64,000 nt of DNA from an uncultured Anaerolineales bacterium (GCA_964526295.1 CAZGKW010000013.1:31468-95467); one strand, 5' to 3'. Shown: positions 55,895-64,000, numbered from the stretch's first letter. Made by a program: numbers and translations. The notes: generated from the sequence alone by a model not told the origin.

Positions 55895-56518
55895 TCAGCC
55901 CCCAAGGCCGGCGCGGGCGTGGGCCCGAAGGGCCTGGACGCGTTGCCGCCATTGGCGGTCGGCGGCCTCCCACCTCTTCACCTTCCCGCCGGCCCGGGCG
56001 GCCTTGATCCCGCCGATGATCAGGTTCAGCAAGCCGCCCAGGATACAGACGCCCCCCACGAGGAGCAGCGGCTCCAGTTCCGGATCGGCCTGCCCTGCGC
56101 CGAGGGCCACCACGCCGAGCGGCAGCGCCACCACCCCCACGATGACCCACCGGACACCCTTGCGGCGGGCCCGCCGCAGGCGAGGCAGGGCGACGCGCAT
56201 CCGGCCCTGGAACGTGGCGTACTGCTCGCGGGCCTCATCGAGGGCCAGCCGGGCCTGTTCCCGGGCGGCCATCGCCTGGTGACGCTGCATCAGGCCGTCC
56301 GTCGTGTCCCGGACGGCCGTCATGTGGTCCTGGATCTCGGTGACCCGGCCGTGGACCTCATCGATGGCCCGCTTGAGGACCGTCAGCTCGATCGAGCCGT
56401 CGGCGGCCCGCGTCACGCGGAAGACCGACCGGCAGCTCGAGCACCGGACGGCGTCGGACGTGTCCTCGACGTGCAGGTTGTCGCCGCAGTTCCTGCACTC
56501 GAAGGTCTGGAGTTCCAT
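55895..56518 (-). CDS. Zn-ribbon / coiled-coil / single-TM protein
   Basis: It has an N-terminal CxxC...CxxC ribbon (CRNCGDN...CSSCRS), a central coiled coil and a C-terminal TM helix. It starts 5 nt after the upstream gene's stop. Confidence 0.5.
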   Translation of the reverse strand: MELQTFECRNCGDNLHVEDTSDAVRCSSCRSVFRVTRAADGSIELTVLKRAIDEVHGRVTEIQDHMTAVRDTTDGLMQRHQAMAAREQARLALDEAREQYATFQGRMRVALPRLRRARRKGVRWVIVGVVALPLGVVALGAGQADPELEPLLLVGGVCILGGLLNLIIGGIKAARAGGKVKRWEAADRQWRQRVQALRAHARAGLGG

Positions 56519-56523
56519 GCGGC

Positions 56524-57294
56524 CTACTTTCGGAGCCCCTGGGCGAGTGCTGTGACCTTCCGGCTGATCTCGTCGGCCCGACGGGCGGCCCCGGCGGCCC
56601 GCTCCTCGCCGGGCGACGCCGGGTCGATGCGGCCCGCCTCCTCCGAGAGCTGCTGCACCTCGGCCGCCAGCATGCCGTACTCGGCCGACCGCCCGACCGT
56701 GCCTGCGTGCGGCAGCGAGTAGGTGAGCTTCTCGCGGAGGGCCTTCAGGCGCGCGGCCAGGTCGGCCGTCGCCTCGGATGAGGCCAGACGGTCCTCCTGG
56801 GTGCGGATCGCCGCGGCCAGGGCCGGCGGCGCCGGGACGCCCTCCGGCACGGGCTCGCCGCCCGCCGCCGCCCCCGCACGGGCCAGGTAGAGGAACACGA
56901 AGATGCCCAGCGCCGCGGCGGCCAGCAGCACCTGCGTCGCCAAGTGCAGCCGGTCGTACAGCTCGCTGCTCTCTCCGGCCGCGTGGACCAGCATCAGGGC
57001 GAAGCTGATGATCGCATAGATGATGACGACGACGTTGACGGCCGGGAGGACGCCGCCCGTCGCGCCGGACGGCATGGACCGGCGGATGGCGTAGAAGGCA
57101 TAGGCCCCCAGGCCGCCCCAGACCACCAGCGCGAGCACCTCGGTCCAGAGCATGTTCCGCCAGAACTGGGGCGTGCGGTCGTCCGTCTCGACCAGCAGCA
57201 GGGCGAGGACCACGATCGCCGCCGCCGTGATGATGTACCCCAGAACCGACGCGACCCACACGCCGTGGATGGGCCTGGCCATGGCGGTCTCCAT
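56524..57294 (-). CDS. 4-TM membrane protein with a C-terminal coiled-coil
   Basis: Its ATG overlaps the SPFH gene stop by 1 nt (TGATG). Four hydrophobic helices are predicted. Confidence 0.5.
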   Translation of the reverse strand: METAMARPIHGVWVASVLGYIITAAAIVVLALLLVETDDRTPQFWRNMLWTEVLALVVWGGLGAYAFYAIRRSMPSGATGGVLPAVNVVVIIYAIISFALMLVHAAGESSELYDRLHLATQVLLAAAALGIFVFLYLARAGAAAGGEPVPEGVPAPPALAAAIRTQEDRLASSEATADLAARLKALREKLTYSLPHAGTVGRSAEYGMLAAEVQQLSEEAGRIDPASPGEERAAGAARRADEISRKVTALAQGLRK

Positions 57295-58493
57295 CACAGG
57301 TCCTTCAGGATCTCGGCCTTCTTGGCGTCGTAATCGTCCTGCGTGATGAGCCCGCCGTCGAGGAGGGCCTTGAGCTGCTGGAGCTTGGCCACGGGGTCGG
57401 CCTGGCCGGCCGGGGCGGCGCCCCCGCCGGGCGCGGCGGGCGGTCCAGGCGGAGGCGTCTCGGGGGCTTGGGGCGCCTGCGCCCCGGTCGCCGACTCGGG
57501 CGGGGGTTCGGCCGAGGGTGGGGGCTCGCCGGACGGGGGCGGAGTCCTGCCCTTCGGCCCTTCGCCCCCCTGGCCTTCCTGCCCCTGTTGGCCCGGCCGG
57601 CCGGGCTGGACGTTCAGGTTGCTCCCCATCTGCTGACCGACCGGCATGCCGGCCCCCAGGCCGACGCCTAGGCCCAGCCCCGCCGAAAGGAGCTGCCCGG
57701 CCCCGCCGCCCTCGTTCGAGGCGGCCTGGTCGAGGGTGTCGAAGGTCCGCATCGTCGTGTAGGCGGGGCCGACGTTCGCGCCGGAGATCTGCTCGATCTC
57801 CATCCGCCGACGGAGCACCTCCTGGAACTGCTCCTTCTCCTCCTGCGGGATGCTGATGCTGACGACGTTGAAGTTGATGACTTCGATGCCGAACCGGCCG
57901 AACTCTTCCCGCATGTCGCTCTCGGTGAACTGCGACAGGTCGTTGAGGCGGGCGGCGATGTCGAAGATCGACGCCCCCCGCTCGACGAAGTACTTCGCCA
58001 GGGCATCGGAGAACCGCTGAACGATCAGGCCGATGAAGTAGTCGAAGATCTTGCCGCTGTCGGCCGACGGGAGGGTCCCCACGATCTGCGTGATGAACGC
58101 CCGGGAGTCCTCGATCCTGAGGCCCCACGTCCCCCGGGCCCGGACGCTGATGGGGAAGTTGTACCGCGGGTCCACCAGGTTCACCGGCGAGGGCGTGCCC
58201 CACCGGAGGTCGCGCTTCACGTGACGGTTGACGAACCAGACCTCGGCCGTAAACGGCGTCTGCCCGCCGAACGGCCGATTGATGAGCCGGCGCAGCAGGG
58301 GCAGGTTGCCCGTGGCCAGCGAGTGGGTGCCCGGCCCGAACAAGTCGAGGGCCTTCCCGCCCTTGACGAGCAGGGCCTCCTGGGCCTGGTTGACGATGAG
58401 CTGGGTCCCGAGGCGAAGCTCTTCCCCGGGGAACTTGAAGGCCAGCTCCTCGTCGCTGGCAGCATCGTGCTTGACGCGATCGATCAGTGCCAT
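57294..58493 (-). CDS. SPFH/band-7 (stomatin/flotillin-like) protein with a Pro/Gly-rich linker and a C-terminal SHOCT domain
   Basis: It has an SPFH core followed by a low-complexity PPP-rich linker. The terminal LKALLDGGLITQDDYDAKKAEIL is a SHOCT-like motif. Confidence 0.75.
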   Translation of the reverse strand: MALIDRVKHDAASDEELAFKFPGEELRLGTQLIVNQAQEALLVKGGKALDLFGPGTHSLATGNLPLLRRLINRPFGGQTPFTAEVWFVNRHVKRDLRWGTPSPVNLVDPRYNFPISVRARGTWGLRIEDSRAFITQIVGTLPSADSGKIFDYFIGLIVQRFSDALAKYFVERGASIFDIAARLNDLSQFTESDMREEFGRFGIEVINFNVVSISIPQEEKEQFQEVLRRRMEIEQISGANVGPAYTTMRTFDTLDQAASNEGGGAGQLLSAGLGLGVGLGAGMPVGQQMGSNLNVQPGRPGQQGQEGQGGEGPKGRTPPPSGEPPPSAEPPPESATGAQAPQAPETPPPGPPAAPGGGAAPAGQADPVAKLQQLKALLDGGLITQDDYDAKKAEILKDL

Positions 58494-58699
58494 GACGTGG
58501 TCCCCTCAGATCACTTGCCGCTCCCGCGAGGACGATACGGCAGCAGGCCACGGCGGGACACCCCTCGGCGTACGCCTCGAAGGGCCGCCTCTGGGTACCA
58601 TAGGCCCCCGCCCGGCGGGGCGTCAACCCAAAAGGGCCTCGGCATCTCCCGCAGGCCGGTCGCGGGCGGCCCGTCCGCCCAAAATGGGGCGGAAACTGC

Positions 58700-58728
58700 T
58701 TACACCGGCCGCCCAGGGATGCTAGAAT
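58700..58728 (+). promoter_or_regulatory. Candidate sigma70-type promoter with an extended -10 (TGcTAGAAT) for the Ubl operon
   Basis: TGCTAGAAT lies ~125 nt upstream of the Ubl ATG in a 350-bp divergent intergenic region. The -35 element is weak (TTACAC). Confidence 0.25.
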
Positions 58729-58851
58729 TGCCGCGGGTGCATTTGAGGGGCCGGCGCGCCTGGTCGTCACCGCCCACGGCGACGACCAGATGGGCAATAC
58801 GTGCGAATTCAGACACCGGCTGGTGCGTATGAGCAGGTGAGGCAGGGGTCG

Positions 58852-59145
58852 ATGGCCGACGAGGACGAGAACATCAACGTCGAGGTCTGGGACGCCACCG
58901 GAAACAAGCGGATCACCGCCAGCCTCCCGCGAAACGCACCGGTCAACCGCATCCTGGTCCTGCTGGTGGACCGGATGAACCTGCCGCGGCACAGCCCCGA
59001 CGGCCAGTTGATGAGCTACAAGTTCCACCACAAGGCGAGCGGGCGGCAACTCCTGGACGAGGAGACTCTCGAGGACGCCGGCGTCCACGAAGGCGACGTC
59101 CTCAGAATCCAGCCGGAGATCACGGCGGGGGGCCGCGAGCCATAA
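58852..59145 (+). CDS. Ubiquitin-like beta-grasp protein (pro-form). A di-glycine is followed by a 3-residue tail (…ITAGG-REP).
   Basis: The GRQLLDEETLEDAGVHEGDVLRIQPE block parallels ubiquitin's [26 protein letters not shown]. The core ends in GG+REP. The ATG at 58852 has a GTGAGG RBS. Confidence 0.6.
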   Translation: MADEDENINVEVWDATGNKRITASLPRNAPVNRILVLLVDRMNLPRHSPDGQLMSYKFHHKASGRQLLDEETLEDAGVHEGDVLRIQPEITAGGREP

Positions 59146-59292
59146 GCAGGTAACGCGATTCAGCGCATCGGGTCTCCGTCCCCGCCGGGCCCGCCGGGGC
59201 AGGGACGGGAACACGTCCGCCCTTGTCGCGGTGTGCACAGAGACCCACCGCACGATGAGCGACGCCTCGCATGAACACGACGGGAATGCCCC

Positions 59293-60480
59293 GTGAGTGA
59301 GACCCCCGCTATCCGGATCGACGGCGCCGAGCCGGAGGCGCGGTTCAGCCGCTTCGAGCTCATCTCCTGGTGGGACCAGAGGCGCCTGCGGGAGGCCAAG
59401 GTCCTCGTCATCGGGGCCGGGGCCCTGGGCAACGAGCTCGTTAAGAACGCCGCCCTCCTGGGCATCGGGAACCTCCTCGTCGCCGACATGGACCGCATCG
59501 AGGGGTCGAACCTGTCGCGGTCGGTCCTGTTTCGGGCCGAGGACGAGGGCCGGCCCAAGGCGGAGGTGGCCTGCGAATCGGCCCGGGCGATCTACCCGGA
59601 CGTCGCCGCCCACCCCTTCGTCGGCAACGTGGTCCACGACCTCGGACTCGGGCCCTACCTCTGGGCCGACGTGGTCCTCGGGGGGCTTGACAACCGTGAG
59701 GCCCGCGTGGCGGTCAACCGCGGGGCCGCCCTGGCCGGGAAGACGTGGATCGACGGGGCCATCGAGGTCTTGAGCGGCCTGGTGCGGGTCTTCGACCCGG
59801 CCGGCGGGCCGTGCTACGAGTGCACCATGAGCGAGGTGGACTGGAAGATCCTCCAGGGCCGCCGGTCCTGCGCCCTGCTGACGCGGGAGGAGATGGAGAC
59901 GGGCAAGGTGCCCACCACGCCGACGACCGGCAGCGTCGTCGCCGGCCTCCAGGTCCAGGAGGCAGTGAAGCTCCTGCACGGCCTCGACGTGCGGACGGGC
60001 GAAGGCGTGCGGCTCGACGGCATCACGGGCGGATTCGAGCCCGTCCGCTACCCCCGGAAGGCCGATTGCGCGGGGCACGAACGGCTGGAGCGCATCGAGC
60101 CGCTGGACGCCGGCGCCGCCGACGTGACCGTCGGGGAGCTGCGGGCGAGGGCCCAGGCCGACCTCGGGCCGGCAGCGACGCTCGAGCTGTCGCGCGACAT
60201 TATCGCGCGGCTCGTGTGCCCCCAGTGCGGCGCGGCCGAGGATCGGTTCGCCTCGCTGGGCCGGGTGACCGTCTCGGAGGCGGCGTGCCCGGCGTGCGGC
60301 CAGGTCCGCATTCCCGAGACGCTCTTCGAGCTGGAGGCCGAGGAAGGCCTGGCCGATAGGACGTTCGCAGCGCTCGGCGTCCCGCCGATGGACGTCGTTA
60401 TCGCCCGGCAGGGCGACGACGCGGTCGGGTACCTGTTCGACGGCGACGCGGAGGCCGTGCTGGGCCCGCTGGCCCGGTGA
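59293..60480 (+). CDS. ThiF/MoeB/E1-like adenylyltransferase with Zn-binding CxxC pairs
   Basis: It has a Rossmann GxGxxG (VLVIGAGALGNELVKN) and the CYEC...C / CPQC...CPAC motifs. Confidence 0.7.
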   Translation: MSETPAIRIDGAEPEARFSRFELISWWDQRRLREAKVLVIGAGALGNELVKNAALLGIGNLLVADMDRIEGSNLSRSVLFRAEDEGRPKAEVACESARAIYPDVAAHPFVGNVVHDLGLGPYLWADVVLGGLDNREARVAVNRGAALAGKTWIDGAIEVLSGLVRVFDPAGGPCYECTMSEVDWKILQGRRSCALLTREEMETGKVPTTPTTGSVVAGLQVQEAVKLLHGLDVRTGEGVRLDGITGGFEPVRYPRKADCAGHERLERIEPLDAGAADVTVGELRARAQADLGPAATLELSRDIIARLVCPQCGAAEDRFASLGRVTVSEAACPACGQVRIPETLFELEAEEGLADRTFAALGVPPMDVVIARQGDDAVGYLFDGDAEAVLGPLAR

Positions 60481-60557
60481 TCGGCGGACCCGACGCCGCG
60501 TGACGTCTGCGGTCGCCGGGGCGCCGGCGCGGACGCGACCCATGAGGAGGACCCCAG

Positions 60558-61874
60558 GTGAGTGACGCCGACCAGCGCGGGGGCGGTTCGTCCGAGGCGG
60601 GCGGTCGGGCCGGCAGCGGACCGGACTGCCGGCGGATCGACCCGTCGGGGCTCCGGGAGGCGGCGTTTCCCGCCCCGGAGTCGCCGGAGTATCGGGTCCA
60701 CTTCAGCGAAGACGCCTACGAGCAGATGAAGGCCCACGCCGCCACCACCGACGAGGTGGAGCTGTGCGGCGTCCTGGTGGGCGAGGTCTGCAAGGACGAG
60801 CAGGGACCGTACCTGCGGATCACGGGGGCCATCGAGGGCCAGGGGGCCAAAAACTACGGGGCCCAGGTCACGTTCACCCACGAGACCTGGAGCCACCTGC
60901 ACGAGGTCAAGGACGCCCGCTACCCGGACACGCGGATCGTGGGCTGGTATCACACGCACCCGGGGTTCGGCGTGTTCCTGTCGAGCATGGACACGTTCAT
61001 CCAGGAGAACTTCTTCAGCGAGCCGTACCAGGTGGCGGTGGTCATCGAGACGCGCCGCGGGGTGGAAGGCTGCTTCGTGTGGCAGGACGGCCGGTGCGTG
61101 CCGCTGCGGCGGTACTGGGTCGGCGACCGGGAGGTCTCGCTGACGCCGGGCGAGGCGGAGGCGTTCGAGGGGTCGCCGGACCGGGCCAAGGCCGAGGACG
61201 TCCCGGTGGAGAACGAGGACGAGGCGGGGCCCCTGCTGCCTCCCTCGATGCTGACGTACGCCCTGGTCGTGCTGGTCTTCGTGGGCGGGGTGATGATCGG
61301 GGCGTTCTTCCTGGGCACGAAGGGGAACGGCGCGGCCGAGCGGGCCGCCGAGAACGAGGTCTATTCGATCCTCGAGTCGGCCGCCCTGGGCACCCTGGCC
61401 GCCGAGGACCTGGAGCGGGTGCGGAGCGAGCTCGAGGCCGTCCGGCGGAATCTGGACGAAGGCAAGGCCGACCTGGCCGTAGAACAGGTGGAGCGGTTGA
61501 CGGCGGAGGTAGACTCCCTCAAGGGGGACTACGCCGAGCGGCGGTCGGTCCGGCGGGCCCAGTTGGCCCATCTGGCCGGCAAGCGCCGAAGCCTCAGCGA
61601 CCGCCTCGAGGTGGTCTGGCGGAACCAGGCGGAGCTGCAACGGGTCGTCGCCGACCTTTATCTGCTGCGGCTCGTCGACGCCCTGCAAAGTCTGGGCGGC
61701 ACGGACCCGTCGAAGTGGAGCGAGGCCGAGCGCCTGGCCGTCAAGCAGATGCTGGACCGGACGCTCCAGCTCGACCCCGGCAACAAGGCGACCATCGAGC
61801 GGGCCGTGCCCGGCCTGGTCGAGCACTTCTATCCGCCCAAGGAGGCGGCCAAGAAGGACAAGCCGGACGATTAG
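60558..61874 (+). CDS. JAB/MPN (JAMM) metallopeptidase with a TM helix and a C-terminal coiled-coil
   Basis: It has the E..H.H..(7)S..D JAMM motif (GWYHTHPGFGVFLSSMD). A hydrophobic helix LTYALVVLVFVGGVMIGAFFLG follows. A GAGGAGG RBS sits before the GTG. Confidence 0.7.
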   Translation: MSDADQRGGGSSEAGGRAGSGPDCRRIDPSGLREAAFPAPESPEYRVHFSEDAYEQMKAHAATTDEVELCGVLVGEVCKDEQGPYLRITGAIEGQGAKNYGAQVTFTHETWSHLHEVKDARYPDTRIVGWYHTHPGFGVFLSSMDTFIQENFFSEPYQVAVVIETRRGVEGCFVWQDGRCVPLRRYWVGDREVSLTPGEAEAFEGSPDRAKAEDVPVENEDEAGPLLPPSMLTYALVVLVFVGGVMIGAFFLGTKGNGAAERAAENEVYSILESAALGTLAAEDLERVRSELEAVRRNLDEGKADLAVEQVERLTAEVDSLKGDYAERRSVRRAQLAHLAGKRRSLSDRLEVVWRNQAELQRVVADLYLLRLVDALQSLGGTDPSKWSEAERLAVKQMLDRTLQLDPGNKATIERAVPGLVEHFYPPKEAAKKDKPDD

Positions 61875-61952
61875 GGCCGGGGCGGCCGCGCCGGCTGGGC
61901 CTGTGCCGGTCCGGATGAGCGGCGGCGAGGCCGCGCTCCGAGGACGTGACCC

Positions 61953-63014
61953 ATGGCGGACATCCGCATCACCCGAAACGAGCTGAACGATCCGGCCATC
62001 GACGAGGTCATCGGCCTGGAGCGGCAGTTCCGTCAGGCGACCGGCGAGGCCGTCGAGGACATCCCCACCCCCTTCTACTACAACCCGCTCTTCTACTACT
62101 CGCTGGCGGGCCTGGCGGGGGGCCTGATCGCCTGGGGCACCCACGAGCCGTTCTACTCCGACCGCGAGTCCATGACCCCCCTCCCGTTCATCAACGACTT
62201 TCTCCTGTTCGGGCCGGTAGCGGCGTTCATCGGGCTGTTCATCGGCGTTTCCTACGGCCTGTCGAACCGAAACGTCAAGCAGGCGCTCTACTGCGGCGTC
62301 GTGGGGCTGGGCGTCGGGCTGGGGGCGACGGTGGTGACGACCTTCGCCGCCAACTGGCTCTACAACATCACCGCGACCATGGCGGTGACGATGTCCGGGG
62401 CACGGCACGACGGCATCTACCAGCCGCGCGGGGTGGCCTTCTTCGTTCAGACGTGCGGCCGGGGGATCGCCTGGGCCATCGTGGCGACGGGGGGCGGCGT
62501 GGGGCTGGGCATCAGCCTGAAGAGCCCCCACCGGATCCTGAACGGCCTGGCGGGGGCCCTCGTCGGGGGGCTGCTGGGCGGCCTCCTGTTCGATCCCATC
62601 GACCGGTTCATCTACGGCTGGGGGGAGGAGGCCGCCACGAGCCGCGGCATCGGCATCGCCGCCATCGGCCTCCTGGTCGGTTTCTTCGTCGGCCTGTTCG
62701 AAAACATCTCGAAGGAGGCTTGGTTCCAGATGCTCCGCGGGCCGCTGGCCGGAAAGCAGTTCATCCTGTTCAAGAGCCCGATGGTCGTCGGCTCGGCCCC
62801 GAAGTGCGACATCTATATCTTCAAGGACCCGGTCATCGAGCCCTGCCACGCCTCCATCACGAAGACGGGGACCAAGTACCTCCTGAGGGACGAAGGGACC
62901 GAGGCCGGCACGTTCGTCAACGGCCGGCGCATCGACCGGTACATTCTCCAGCCCGACGACTTCGTCACCATCGGAGAGGCGGTCCTGAAGTACCACGAGC
63001 GGCACCAGTCGTAG
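61953..63014 (+). CDS. Polytopic membrane protein with a C-terminal FHA domain
   Basis: It has about 6 TM helices. The C-terminal FHA signature is YIFKDPVIEPCHASI...GTFVNGRRI...DDFVTIGE. Confidence 0.65.
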   Translation: MADIRITRNELNDPAIDEVIGLERQFRQATGEAVEDIPTPFYYNPLFYYSLAGLAGGLIAWGTHEPFYSDRESMTPLPFINDFLLFGPVAAFIGLFIGVSYGLSNRNVKQALYCGVVGLGVGLGATVVTTFAANWLYNITATMAVTMSGARHDGIYQPRGVAFFVQTCGRGIAWAIVATGGGVGLGISLKSPHRILNGLAGALVGGLLGGLLFDPIDRFIYGWGEEAATSRGIGIAAIGLLVGFFVGLFENISKEAWFQMLRGPLAGKQFILFKSPMVVGSAPKCDIYIFKDPVIEPCHASITKTGTKYLLRDEGTEAGTFVNGRRIDRYILQPDDFVTIGEAVLKYHERHQS

Positions 63015-63032
63015 CCGGCGAGAGGCAGATTC

Positions 63033-63950
63033 ATGGCCGAACCGGGCGAGAAGCGGCGGATGACGTGCCCGCACTGCCGGGTCACGGTCGAGTTCCCGGC
63101 CCGGCTGGCCGGGCACGAGCGTCCGTGCCCGAAGTGTCTGCGGGCCATCACCCTGGAGGCCCGCCCGGCGACGGGGGCGACGCCGGCCCCGGGTCCCTCG
63201 CCGGCCGCGGCCGTCCCGCCGCCGGCGGCGGGTCCGCTTTCGGAGGGCCCCGGCGCCGGTCCCCCGCCCTCGCCGGAGAAGGAGCGGCACGCCTTCACGC
63301 CGGTCCGGCCGCCGGGCAAGGAGGGGCCGGCGTTCCTGGAGCGGATGCGGGCCAACCGGGTCCTGGCCGGCCGGATCTGCCCCGGCTGCGGACAGGAGAT
63401 CGACCTGGGCGACGACGTGTTCAACTGCCCGAGCTGCAACGTGACGATGCACTTCGCCTGCCGCGAGCAGCACGGCGGCTGCGCGAACCCGGACTGCCCG
63501 GCCTATCAGGCGGCCGCCCCTGCGGCGGCTGCGGCCCCTGCGGGGGGGGCCGCGGCCCCCCCCGCAGGGGCCGACCTCGTGCCGTGCCGGTTCTGCGGCG
63601 AACCGATCACCCGGCAGGCCCGCCGGTGCCTCTATTGCGGCGAGTATCAGCAGCGCGTCCACCCGCGGTTCCGCGCCCGCCAGGATCCCCTGTCGCAGAA
63701 GGCCACCACGGCGATGGTGCTCGGGATCCTGGGGCTGGTCTTCTCGACCGTGACGTGCTGCCCGCCGCTGGGCATCGGCCTCGGGACCGGCGCCATCGTC
63801 CTCGGGGGCAAGGCCAAGGCGTCGACGACCTCGGCCGGCAAGGCCAACGCCGGCTTCATCATGGGGATCATCGCGGTGGTCCTGGGCGGGCTGGGCCTCG
63901 TGTGGCTCCTGTTCATGATCGGGGTCAATTTCCAGGCGAACGGGTACTAG
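63033..63950 (+). CDS. Multi-zinc-ribbon protein with a Pro/Ala-rich linker and a C-terminal double-TM (DUF4190-like) anchor
   Basis: It has four CxxC pairs (CPHC/CPKC; CPGC/CPSC; ...CRFC/CLYC). The C-terminal hydrophobic helices include a CCPP segment. Confidence 0.55.
   Translation: MAEPGEKRRMTCPHCRVTVEFPARLAGHERPCPKCLRAITLEARPATGATPAPGPSPAAAVPPPAAGPLSEGPGAGPPPSPEKERHAFTPVRPPGKEGPAFLERMRANRVLAGRICPGCGQEIDLGDDVFNCPSCNVTMHFACREQHGGCANPDCPAYQAAAPAAAAAPAGGAAAPPAGADLVPCRFCGEPITRQARRCLYCGEYQQRVHPRFRARQDPLSQKATTAMVLGILGLVFSTVTCCPPLGIGLGTGAIVLGGKAKASTTSAGKANAGFIMGIIAVVLGGLGLVWLLFMIGVNFQANGY
63532..63573. repeat. Perfect ~42-bp palindrome containing G8 and C8 homopolymer tracts, inside the Zn-ribbon gene
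   Basis: The left arm is cggcccctgcgggggggg, the central spacer is ccgcgg, and the right arm is ccccccccgcaggggccg. The arms are exact reverse complements. Confidence 0.7.
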
Positions 63951-64000
63951 TGTAGTGTATCAAGCAGATTGCACATTATTCAGTACGGCCCGTGCCCGTT

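Follow-up and report, generated by a model that had tools for sequence, protein, structure and literature searches.

At positions 58852-63950 of a 64,000-nt stretch of DNA from an uncultured Anaerolineales bacterium (GCA_964526295.1 CAZGKW010000013.1:31468-95467; the whole stretch is called the window here and is numbered from its first letter), ORF listing and Pfam scans place five closely packed genes on the plus strand. These genes encode a ubiquitin-like protein (Ubl) of the YukD family, a Ubl-activating enzyme (E1), a JAB peptidase, an FHA-fold membrane protein, and a RING-finger protein. They are very probably the first five genes of an approximately ten-gene, largely membrane-tethered cassette that combines E1, a conjugating enzyme (E2), RING-type ligases (E3s), and a deconjugase for a YukD-like Ubl. 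An independent Logan assembly covering this DNA has matching gene boundaries; two of its contigs carry gene 4, and both stop within gene 5. The co-directional, tightly spaced arrangement of five genes reported in a preliminary description of this DNA is present at the locus, which contains the following features:

58852-59145, + strand: YukD-family Ubl in a pro-form, 97 amino acids (aa) (Pfam YukD, 1.1e-10)
59293-60480, + strand: E1, 395 aa (ThiF, 1e-46)
60076-60477, + strand: E1 residues 262-395, modelled as a C-terminal ubiquitin-fold domain (UFD); predicted E2-docking domain
60558-61874, + strand: membrane-anchored JAMM/JAB metallopeptidase, 438 aa (Pfam JAB, 7.8e-11; Prok-JAB, 2.4e-8)
61953-63014, + strand: membrane protein with about six transmembrane (TM) helices and a C-terminal non-canonical FHA fold (62715-63011), 353 aa (FHA, 1.9e-14; Yop-YscD_cpl, 1.8e-14)
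63033-63950, + strand: membrane-tethered RING-finger protein of the prokaryotic type, 305 aa, a predicted E3 (Prok-RING_1, PF14446)
63951-64000, no strand: intergenic DNA from gene 5 to the end of the window, 50 nt

To survey conservation, one genome per species was scanned with the E1, and 27 loci with close relatives were obtained. Most are from Planctomycetota; the others are from Verrucomicrobia, Victivallales, Riflebacteria, Brocadiia, Anaerolineales, and Bacteroidia. Based on tblastn searches with the window proteins, the order Ubl-E1-JAB-FHA-RING is seen in about 20 of the 27 loci, from several phyla, and in essentially every locus that is long enough; its carriers include Planctomycetota, Verrucomicrobia, Victivallales, Riflebacteria, and Brocadiia. 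This recurrence is far beyond chance, and conservation of the neighborhood across genomes, which the preliminary description had named as a check on the module, is borne out. In the same tblastn comparison, identity to the window protein is 63-86% for the Ubl, including orthologues in other phyla, 53-66% for the E1, 35-57% for the FHA protein, 33-48% for the JAB peptidase, and 23-50% for the RING protein. Such a gradient would be expected if the modifier is conserved while the parts that face substrates diverge. Some loci differ in detail from the window. At L001-L003, L005, L022, and L027, the Ubl gene is immediately preceded by a gene for a further Zn-ribbon membrane protein of about 355 aa (for example, L005:8517-9578), which the window lacks. 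One locus (L004) belongs to a cultured planctomycete, Aeoliella straminimaris ICT_H6.2 (NZ_JAMXLR010000089.1), a possible experimental host; here, a small Zn-ribbon/TM gene lies between the Ubl and E1 genes, and the contig stops after the JAB gene.

The Ubl has its Pfam match to YukD and not to ThiS or MoaD, in keeping with the preliminary description, which had considered it unlike ThiS/MoaD. In the window, its C-terminus reads ...EITAGGREP, previously described as a core ending in Gly-Gly followed by a REP tail that would require processing. In all 27 orthologues, the sequence ...QPEITAG is followed by a variable tail of 0-20 residues, and two of these proteins terminate exactly at TAG. Because the conserved end is Ala-Gly with variable tails, the second Gly in the window is best assigned as the first residue of the tail. 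The conserved mature end is then Gly93 (codon 59128-59130), after which a four-residue tail, GREP, remains. A processed pro-form is therefore retained from the earlier description, whereas Gly-Gly, although literally present, is not the conserved end. Natural fusions of the Ubl are also observed. In Ubl-E1 fusions (L020:266-1816 and P0113, 485 aa), the junction consists of ...ITAG, a 14-aa linker, and the E1, and in an Anaerolineales variant (L023:7859-8707) YukD is fused to a UQ_con (E2) domain. The ITAG end with its variable tails, together with the fusions to E1 and E2, implies that a protease cuts after the conserved Gly. The need for such cleavage in the fusions is in keeping with JAB, whose JAMM motif is intact, as the processing peptidase.

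The adenylation domain of the E1 spans aa 22-259 and contains GAGALGNE at aa 41; the protein also has three CxxC pairs (C174/C177, C309/C312, and C332/C335), consistent with its earlier description as a ThiF/E1-like enzyme with Zn-binding CxxC pairs. All six of these Cys residues are invariant, as are Cys193, C259, and H262. Based on its invariance and its position in a flexible crossover loop, Cys193 is likely the catalytic, thioester-forming residue. The C-terminal 134 aa of the protein are confidently modelled as a UFD, into which a Zn ribbon made up of the invariant residues C309, C312, C332, and C335 is inserted. In eukaryotic E1s, the UFD is the E2-docking domain. The preliminary description had proposed that the last 150 aa be searched for a cryptic E2/UBC or RWD fold; a cryptic E2 in this region was rejected, as the region models as a UFD instead. 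In profile comparisons, the E1 matches UBA7, UBA1, and UBA3 at 1e-35 to 1e-31, versus 1e-27 to 1e-26 for ThiF or MoeB, and it scores far below the NCBIfam cutoffs for ThiF (TIGR02356, 115 bits vs 275), MoeB (NF006444, 99 bits vs 449), and UbaA (NF047750, 92.8 bits vs 450). A protein database yielded 6711 ThiF-family matches at E<=1e-20, and the best 120 of these are all near-full-length orthologues (E<1e-143). The best match among species-representative genomes has 76% identity and is partial.

These properties bear on whether the module tags proteins or carries sulfur. A YukD-type Ubl, an E1 that falls below the ThiF, MoeB, and UbaA cutoffs and is nearer to UBA7, UBA1, and UBA3, the modelled UFD, a canonical JAMM motif, and a conserved neighborhood together support protein tagging, as the preliminary description had preferred, over a MoaD/ThiS-MoeB sulfur-carrier pair. 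The converse reading, in which a plain MoeB would serve a MoaD/ThiS carrier, is contradicted by the E1 scores, the UFD, and the YukD-type Ubl, and no cofactor genes (rhodanese, MoaE, or ThiG) are found nearby.

The preliminary description had also singled out the lack of a recognizable E2. In the 64-kb window, no E2 was detected in any frame, either by tblastn with the E2 of a relative or with a maximum-sensitivity hidden Markov model (HMM) built from the E2 cores of twelve relatives. In the related loci, however, the E2 gene lies beyond the point at which the window ends. Pfam scans of the downstream regions of L005, L003, L008, and L015 identify one or two more TM-anchored RING proteins, a RING-TM-Trypsin_2 protein, a UQ_con protein of about 300 aa (PF00179, 3.4e-10), and a DUF2752 membrane protein. 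The closest relatives on long contigs, P0008 (68% E1 identity) and P0010/L031 (65%), have the order YukD-ThiF-JAB-FHA-...-Prok-RING-RING/Trypsin-UQ_con-DUF2752 in precomputed gene tables. An E2 core was found in 14 loci with a family HMM, and once the P0008 contig is added, 15 of the 16 loci with at least 3 kb of downstream DNA have an E2, a count that takes in three distant variants; among the variants, the E2 is fused to a Ubl in Anaerolineales and follows the Ubl gene in Bacteroidia. The relatives' E2 retains the HPN motif and the catalytic Cys and aligns with UBE2A, UBC9, and UBE2N over those residues. Its gene starts approximately 2.7-4.3 kb downstream of the FHA gene, and the window stops about 1 kb downstream of its own FHA gene. 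Because the window ends 50 nt after gene 5, upstream of the position of the relatives' E2, the apparent lack of an E2 is, as far as the evidence can show, a truncation artefact, and, as a general caution, apparent absence next to a window edge should not be taken as real. Further RING proteins, the RING-protease, the E2, and DUF2752, which would complete the operon, are expected beyond position 64000. An exact-protein look-up with gene 5 gave no match, and a metagenome scan with gene 5 gave one unrelated fragment only.

The same evidence weighs on an alternative in which the system has no E2 and the E1 hands the Ubl directly to its targets, in the manner of SAMP/UbaA or TtuB/TtuC, or in which the Ubl is a sulfur carrier. 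E2-independent Ubl conjugation exists in archaea and Thermus, and both the E2-free window and one related locus, L013, agree with such a system. However, the edge of the window prevents the missing E2 from being judged, a UBC-type E2 is present at nearly all related loci with enough sequence, the E1 keeps a confidently modelled domain with a known role in E2 recruitment, and its UbaA, MoeB, and ThiF scores are low. In addition, the RING E3s would be without a role if there were no E2. With these points combined, an E2-less or sulfur-carrying system is very unlikely, and a cassette with a separate E2 is the preferred reading.

Several further observations concern the downstream proteins of the relatives. 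In many of them, the E2 (L005:16326-17252, L003:16341-17243, L027:16453-17370) has a C-terminal extension of about 130 aa with at least eight CxxC-type pairs and no Pfam match; the E2 of L008, L010, and L026 has a short Zn-ribbon-like tail instead. A RING finger, three TM helices, and an HtrA/DegS-like serine protease are joined in one protein at L005:15019-16329, with orthologues in L003, L008, L010, L014, L019, L026, L027, and L031. In nine of nine orthologues, three hydrophobic segments and a K/R-rich TM2-TM3 loop are present, which by the positive-inside rule predicts a periplasmic protease and a cytoplasmic RING. The RING-protease would thereby link a cytoplasmic E3 domain to periplasmic proteolysis. 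Finally, a reduced cassette at L010:5881-10850 consists of Ubl-E1-JAB-RING/trypsin-E2-DUF2752 and has neither the 6TM-FHA protein nor stand-alone RING proteins, a composition that points to a core of six genes, with genes 4 and 5 of the window as accessory components.

In the window, the JAB domain (approximately nt 60693-61127) has an intact JAMM motif, E66...H132-x-H-x7-S-x2-D145, with the sequence H132-T-H; E66 and H132-T-H-x7-S-x2-D145 are conserved. A single hydrophobic segment, at aa 223-256 (nt 61224-61325), provides one TM helix. The earlier account of a JAMM/JAB peptidase with its own TM helix is in agreement with these features, and the possibility it had raised of non-canonical motif residues did not materialize. 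The C-terminal region after the TM helix, about 180 aa, diverges strongly between orthologues and, judged from this topology, would lie outside the cytoplasm on the periplasmic side.

Gene 5 was previously described as a multi-Zn-ribbon membrane protein. Two Zn ribbons (C12...C35 and C185...C202) and two TM helices (aa 224-302, TM scan) are indeed present, but the central finger between the ribbons is a RING. It matches Prok-RING_1 (PF14446), a family that presumably derives from Burroughs, Iyer, and Aravind 2011, with 35.8 bits against a cutoff of 29.1 (7.5e-9). The finger, at aa 116-155 (nt 63378-63497), is of the C4HC3 type, C-x2-C-x11-C-x2-C-x4-H-x2-C-x6-C-x4-C, and the motif C-x2-C-x11-C-x2-C-x4-H-x2-C-x5/6-C-x4-C recurs in 28 paralogues of the related loci. 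On this basis, gene 5 is a prokaryotic RING-finger protein and a predicted E3. In the orthologue group of gene 5 (the first RING paralogue), the residue after H-x2-C is Arg, His, or Tyr, whereas a conserved Trp takes this place in paralogues 2 and 3; the first paralogue may bind E2 differently.

The fourth gene product has about six TM helices and ends in an FHA fold, as described previously, and representatives of this protein form 217 clusters at E<=1e-30. A cryptic E2 in its N-terminal region was considered and rejected, as this region consists of TM helices. The preliminary description had further proposed that the FHA domain couples the module to Ser/Thr-phospho signaling. In an alignment with GarA, GR is replaced with GS, SRRHA with EPCHA, and SLNG with TEAG. 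The family alignment shows that the Arg-to-Ser and Ser-Arg-to-Glu-Pro changes are family-wide; Asn is Ala in the window and variable in orthologues. The substituted residues are the phosphothreonine contacts of canonical FHA domains, and the canonical set (Gly-Arg, Ser-Arg-x-His, and Asn) is not found, so the match is to the fold only. The domain also scores equally against the cytoplasmic domain of YscD, which is phospho-independent, and the conserved cassette includes neither a kinase nor a phosphatase. With the pocket residues lost across the family, an equally strong YscD match, and no such enzyme in the cassette, the proposed link to phospho-signaling is unsupported, and the FHA fold is more likely a protein-binding scaffold. 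A cryo-electron microscopy structure of a T7SSb complex shows YukD, itself a Ubl, bound to the FHA domains of the membrane ATPase YukB and holding them in place (PMC12637312). The FHA fold of the 6TM protein may, by analogy, be a docking site or receptor for the YukD-like Ubl.

This precedent also raises the possibility that the Ubl is a non-covalent assembly factor of a membrane complex, as YukD is in T7SSb, and that the enzymes act on another substrate. The Ubl belongs to the YukD family, its operon encodes an FHA-fold membrane protein, and Bacillus subtilis YukD is unconjugated (PMC1779556) and binds the FHA domains of a membrane protein. In contrast to the YukD of T7SS, however, the Ubl described here has a strictly conserved C-terminal Gly with disposable tails; its gene is always beside that of the E1, and the protein is sometimes fused to the E1 or E2. 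Moreover, no EssC/EccC was noted in the neighborhoods examined, and the operon proteins have no T7SS family match. A purely non-covalent role for the Ubl is thus extremely improbable in comparison with conjugation by the cassette.

For the preferred cassette, the following cycle can be proposed from the folds, the invariant residues, and the gene content of relatives. The JAB peptidase would trim the pro-Ubl after Gly93 (...EITAG|GREP). The E1 would adenylate Gly93 and hold the Ubl as a thioester on Cys193, and its modelled UFD would recruit a separate UBC-type E2 with the HPN motif and catalytic Cys, as seen in relatives and presumed for this genome. Membrane-anchored RING proteins, of which gene 5 would be one and of which relatives have one to three more paralogues, would act as E3s that guide the Ubl to targets on the cytoplasmic side of the inner membrane. 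In relatives, one RING paralogue is joined through three TM helices to the predicted periplasmic HtrA/DegS-like protease, and the JAB peptidase may also reverse the conjugation. Regulation or quality control of envelope proteins is the role that fits this anatomy best.

Four points weigh against this interpretation. First, L013 (1-10093) has no E2 in 5.7 kb downstream of the FHA gene; among related loci that extend more than 5 kb past that gene, it alone has no detectable E2 or RING-protease, and an 805-aa protein without Pfam matches follows its RING gene. Second, a single-sequence search of the RING region of gene 5 also finds resemblance to C1- and PHD-type binuclear fingers, and because of this resemblance the predicted E3 function depends on the Pfam family together with the gene context. 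Third, an E2 of the source genome would lie outside what the window covers and is presumed from its relatives. Fourth, conjugation, its targets, and the E3 activity of the RING proteins are inferred for every member of the family.

A more elaborate proposal is that the cassette is a trans-envelope Ubl machine, in which E1-E2-RING ligation would be tied to the periplasm through the RING-3TM-HtrA-like protease and a sensor-like JAB tail, with the phospho-blind FHA fold as Ubl receptor. Such a machine would act on envelope proteins in the PVC superphylum, either in the manner of endoplasmic reticulum-associated degradation (ERAD-like) or in signaling. This proposal is doubtful in its entirety and is offered tentatively.

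The same chemistry could alternatively serve anti-phage defense of the Bil, Bub, or CBASS-Cap2 type, in which phage proteins are tagged or an effector is primed. For Bil, only a partial match to BilD was obtained (E 8.9e-6, aa 36-97), and BilA, BilB, and BilC gave no match. For type II CBASS, the PADLOC E1-E2 models cover no more of the E1 than its Rossmann part (aa 23-152), its C-terminus is modelled as a UFD and not a fused E2, and no CD-NTase is seen nearby. For Bub, the genes here are separate, and none of the operon proteins of the window or relatives matches DUF6527. The PADLOC matches are partial and at superfamily level, and the Ubl, E2, RING, FHA, and DUF2752 proteins have none. In addition, the high identity of the Ubl across phyla points to strong purifying selection more than to an arms race, the flanking genes are housekeeping-like (ABC transporters, a methyltransferase, and a glycosidase), and the Ubl has no match in plasmid or phage collections. 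A defense function is accordingly unlikely.

Upstream of the Ubl gene, one further feature was identified:

58699-58728, + strand: promoter-like site ahead of the Ubl gene, sigma-70-like (CTTACA-18-TAGAAT with an upstream TG); consensus match only

In the region 58400-64000, two promoter-like sites are found, compared with 0.1 expected from shuffled sequences. Both are in the intergenic region between an SPFH gene and the Ubl gene (58494-58851), one on each strand: the site above (+) and a second at 58626-58597 (-). A hairpin between the Ubl and E1 genes was considered as an attenuator and rejected, as it folds no better than shuffled sequence (z = -1.1). Divergent from the module, a minus-strand trio occupies 55895-58493: an SPFH/Band7 gene whose product ends in a SHOCT tail (57294-58493), a gene for a multi-TM protein (56524-57294), and one for a Zn-ribbon/TM protein (55895-56518). 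The upstream genes of the window (SPFH, PRiA4, and GH123, the SPFH trio included) are not conserved beside the module in relatives.

Burroughs, Iyer, and Aravind (Mol Biosyst 2011) reportedly predicted bacterial operons with E1, E2, RING, JAB, and YukD-like components, and their abstract is said to propose conjugation of the YukD-like Ubl and a UFD in the E1. Later publications (PMC7159879; PMC3417536) attribute to that 2011 work the prediction of bacterial operons combining E1, E2, a RING E3, JAB, and Ubl, and related uncharacterized operons occur in Planctomycetes (PMC4197634). The statement in the preliminary description that this combination is not a described system is thus superseded, since E1/E2/RING/JAB/Ubl operons of this type had already been predicted (PMC4197634, PMC3417536, PMC7159879). 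The operon in the window belongs to this predicted RING-type family, and the traits that suggested novelty are not sustained. It shares with the 2011 operons the YukD-like Ubl ending in Gly, the UFD-bearing E1, the JAB peptidase (with an intact JAMM motif here), TM-anchored RING proteins and, in relatives, the HPN-containing E2; no defining feature differs, and the window holds the first half only. Experimental work covers CBASS Cap2/Cap3, Bil, and Bub (PMC11601603; PMC11601596), and a literature search found no experimental study of RING-type Ubl operons. The family is common in Planctomycetota and related phyla and has at least one cultured carrier, Aeoliella straminimaris. It is a good experimental target and not a discovery: its characterization would test RING-dependent Ubl ligation in bacteria and reveal the effect of such ligation at a membrane, and would bear on the evolution of the ubiquitin system.

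Among other known systems, the operon of Caldiarchaeum subterraneum (Ub, E1, E2, a small RING, and Rpn11; PMC3082918, PMC4197634) shares the full E1-E2-RING-JAMM cascade and a pro-Ubl that needs C-terminal processing. Its proteins are soluble and its ubiquitin-like modifier ends in Gly-Gly; here, in contrast, the Ubl is YukD-like and ends in Ala-Gly, the RING proteins, the JAB peptidase, and several partners are membrane-anchored, and multiple RING paralogues occur, one of them fused to a protease. The Bil (types I and II), Bub, and CBASS Cap2/Cap3 systems are without a RING E3, membrane anchoring, or FHA; Bub instead carries a DUF6527 protease and fused enzymes, and the target of conjugation in CBASS is a CD-NTase. 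The SAMP/UbaA system of Haloferax and TtuB/TtuC of Thermus share a Ubl, a ThiF-type E1, and a JAMM desampylase, which is what the window alone appears to show. Their E1s, however, have no UFD, and their MoaD/ThiS-like Ubls double as sulfur carriers; the UbaA score, the UFD, the RING protein in the window, and the E2 and RINGs of relatives place the present operon outside this group. The YukD-YukB(FHA)-YukC proteins of T7SSb (PMC12637312) share a YukD-family beta-grasp protein encoded with an FHA-fold membrane protein, but there YukD is unconjugated and no E1, E2, or JAB is present, and no T7SS ATPase or WXG100 genes were found here. Among the bacterial Ubl systems compared, the RING-type operons have the most eukaryote-like parts list: a UFD-bearing E1, an HPN-containing UBC-type E2, several RING proteins, a JAMM deconjugase, and a very strongly conserved modifier.

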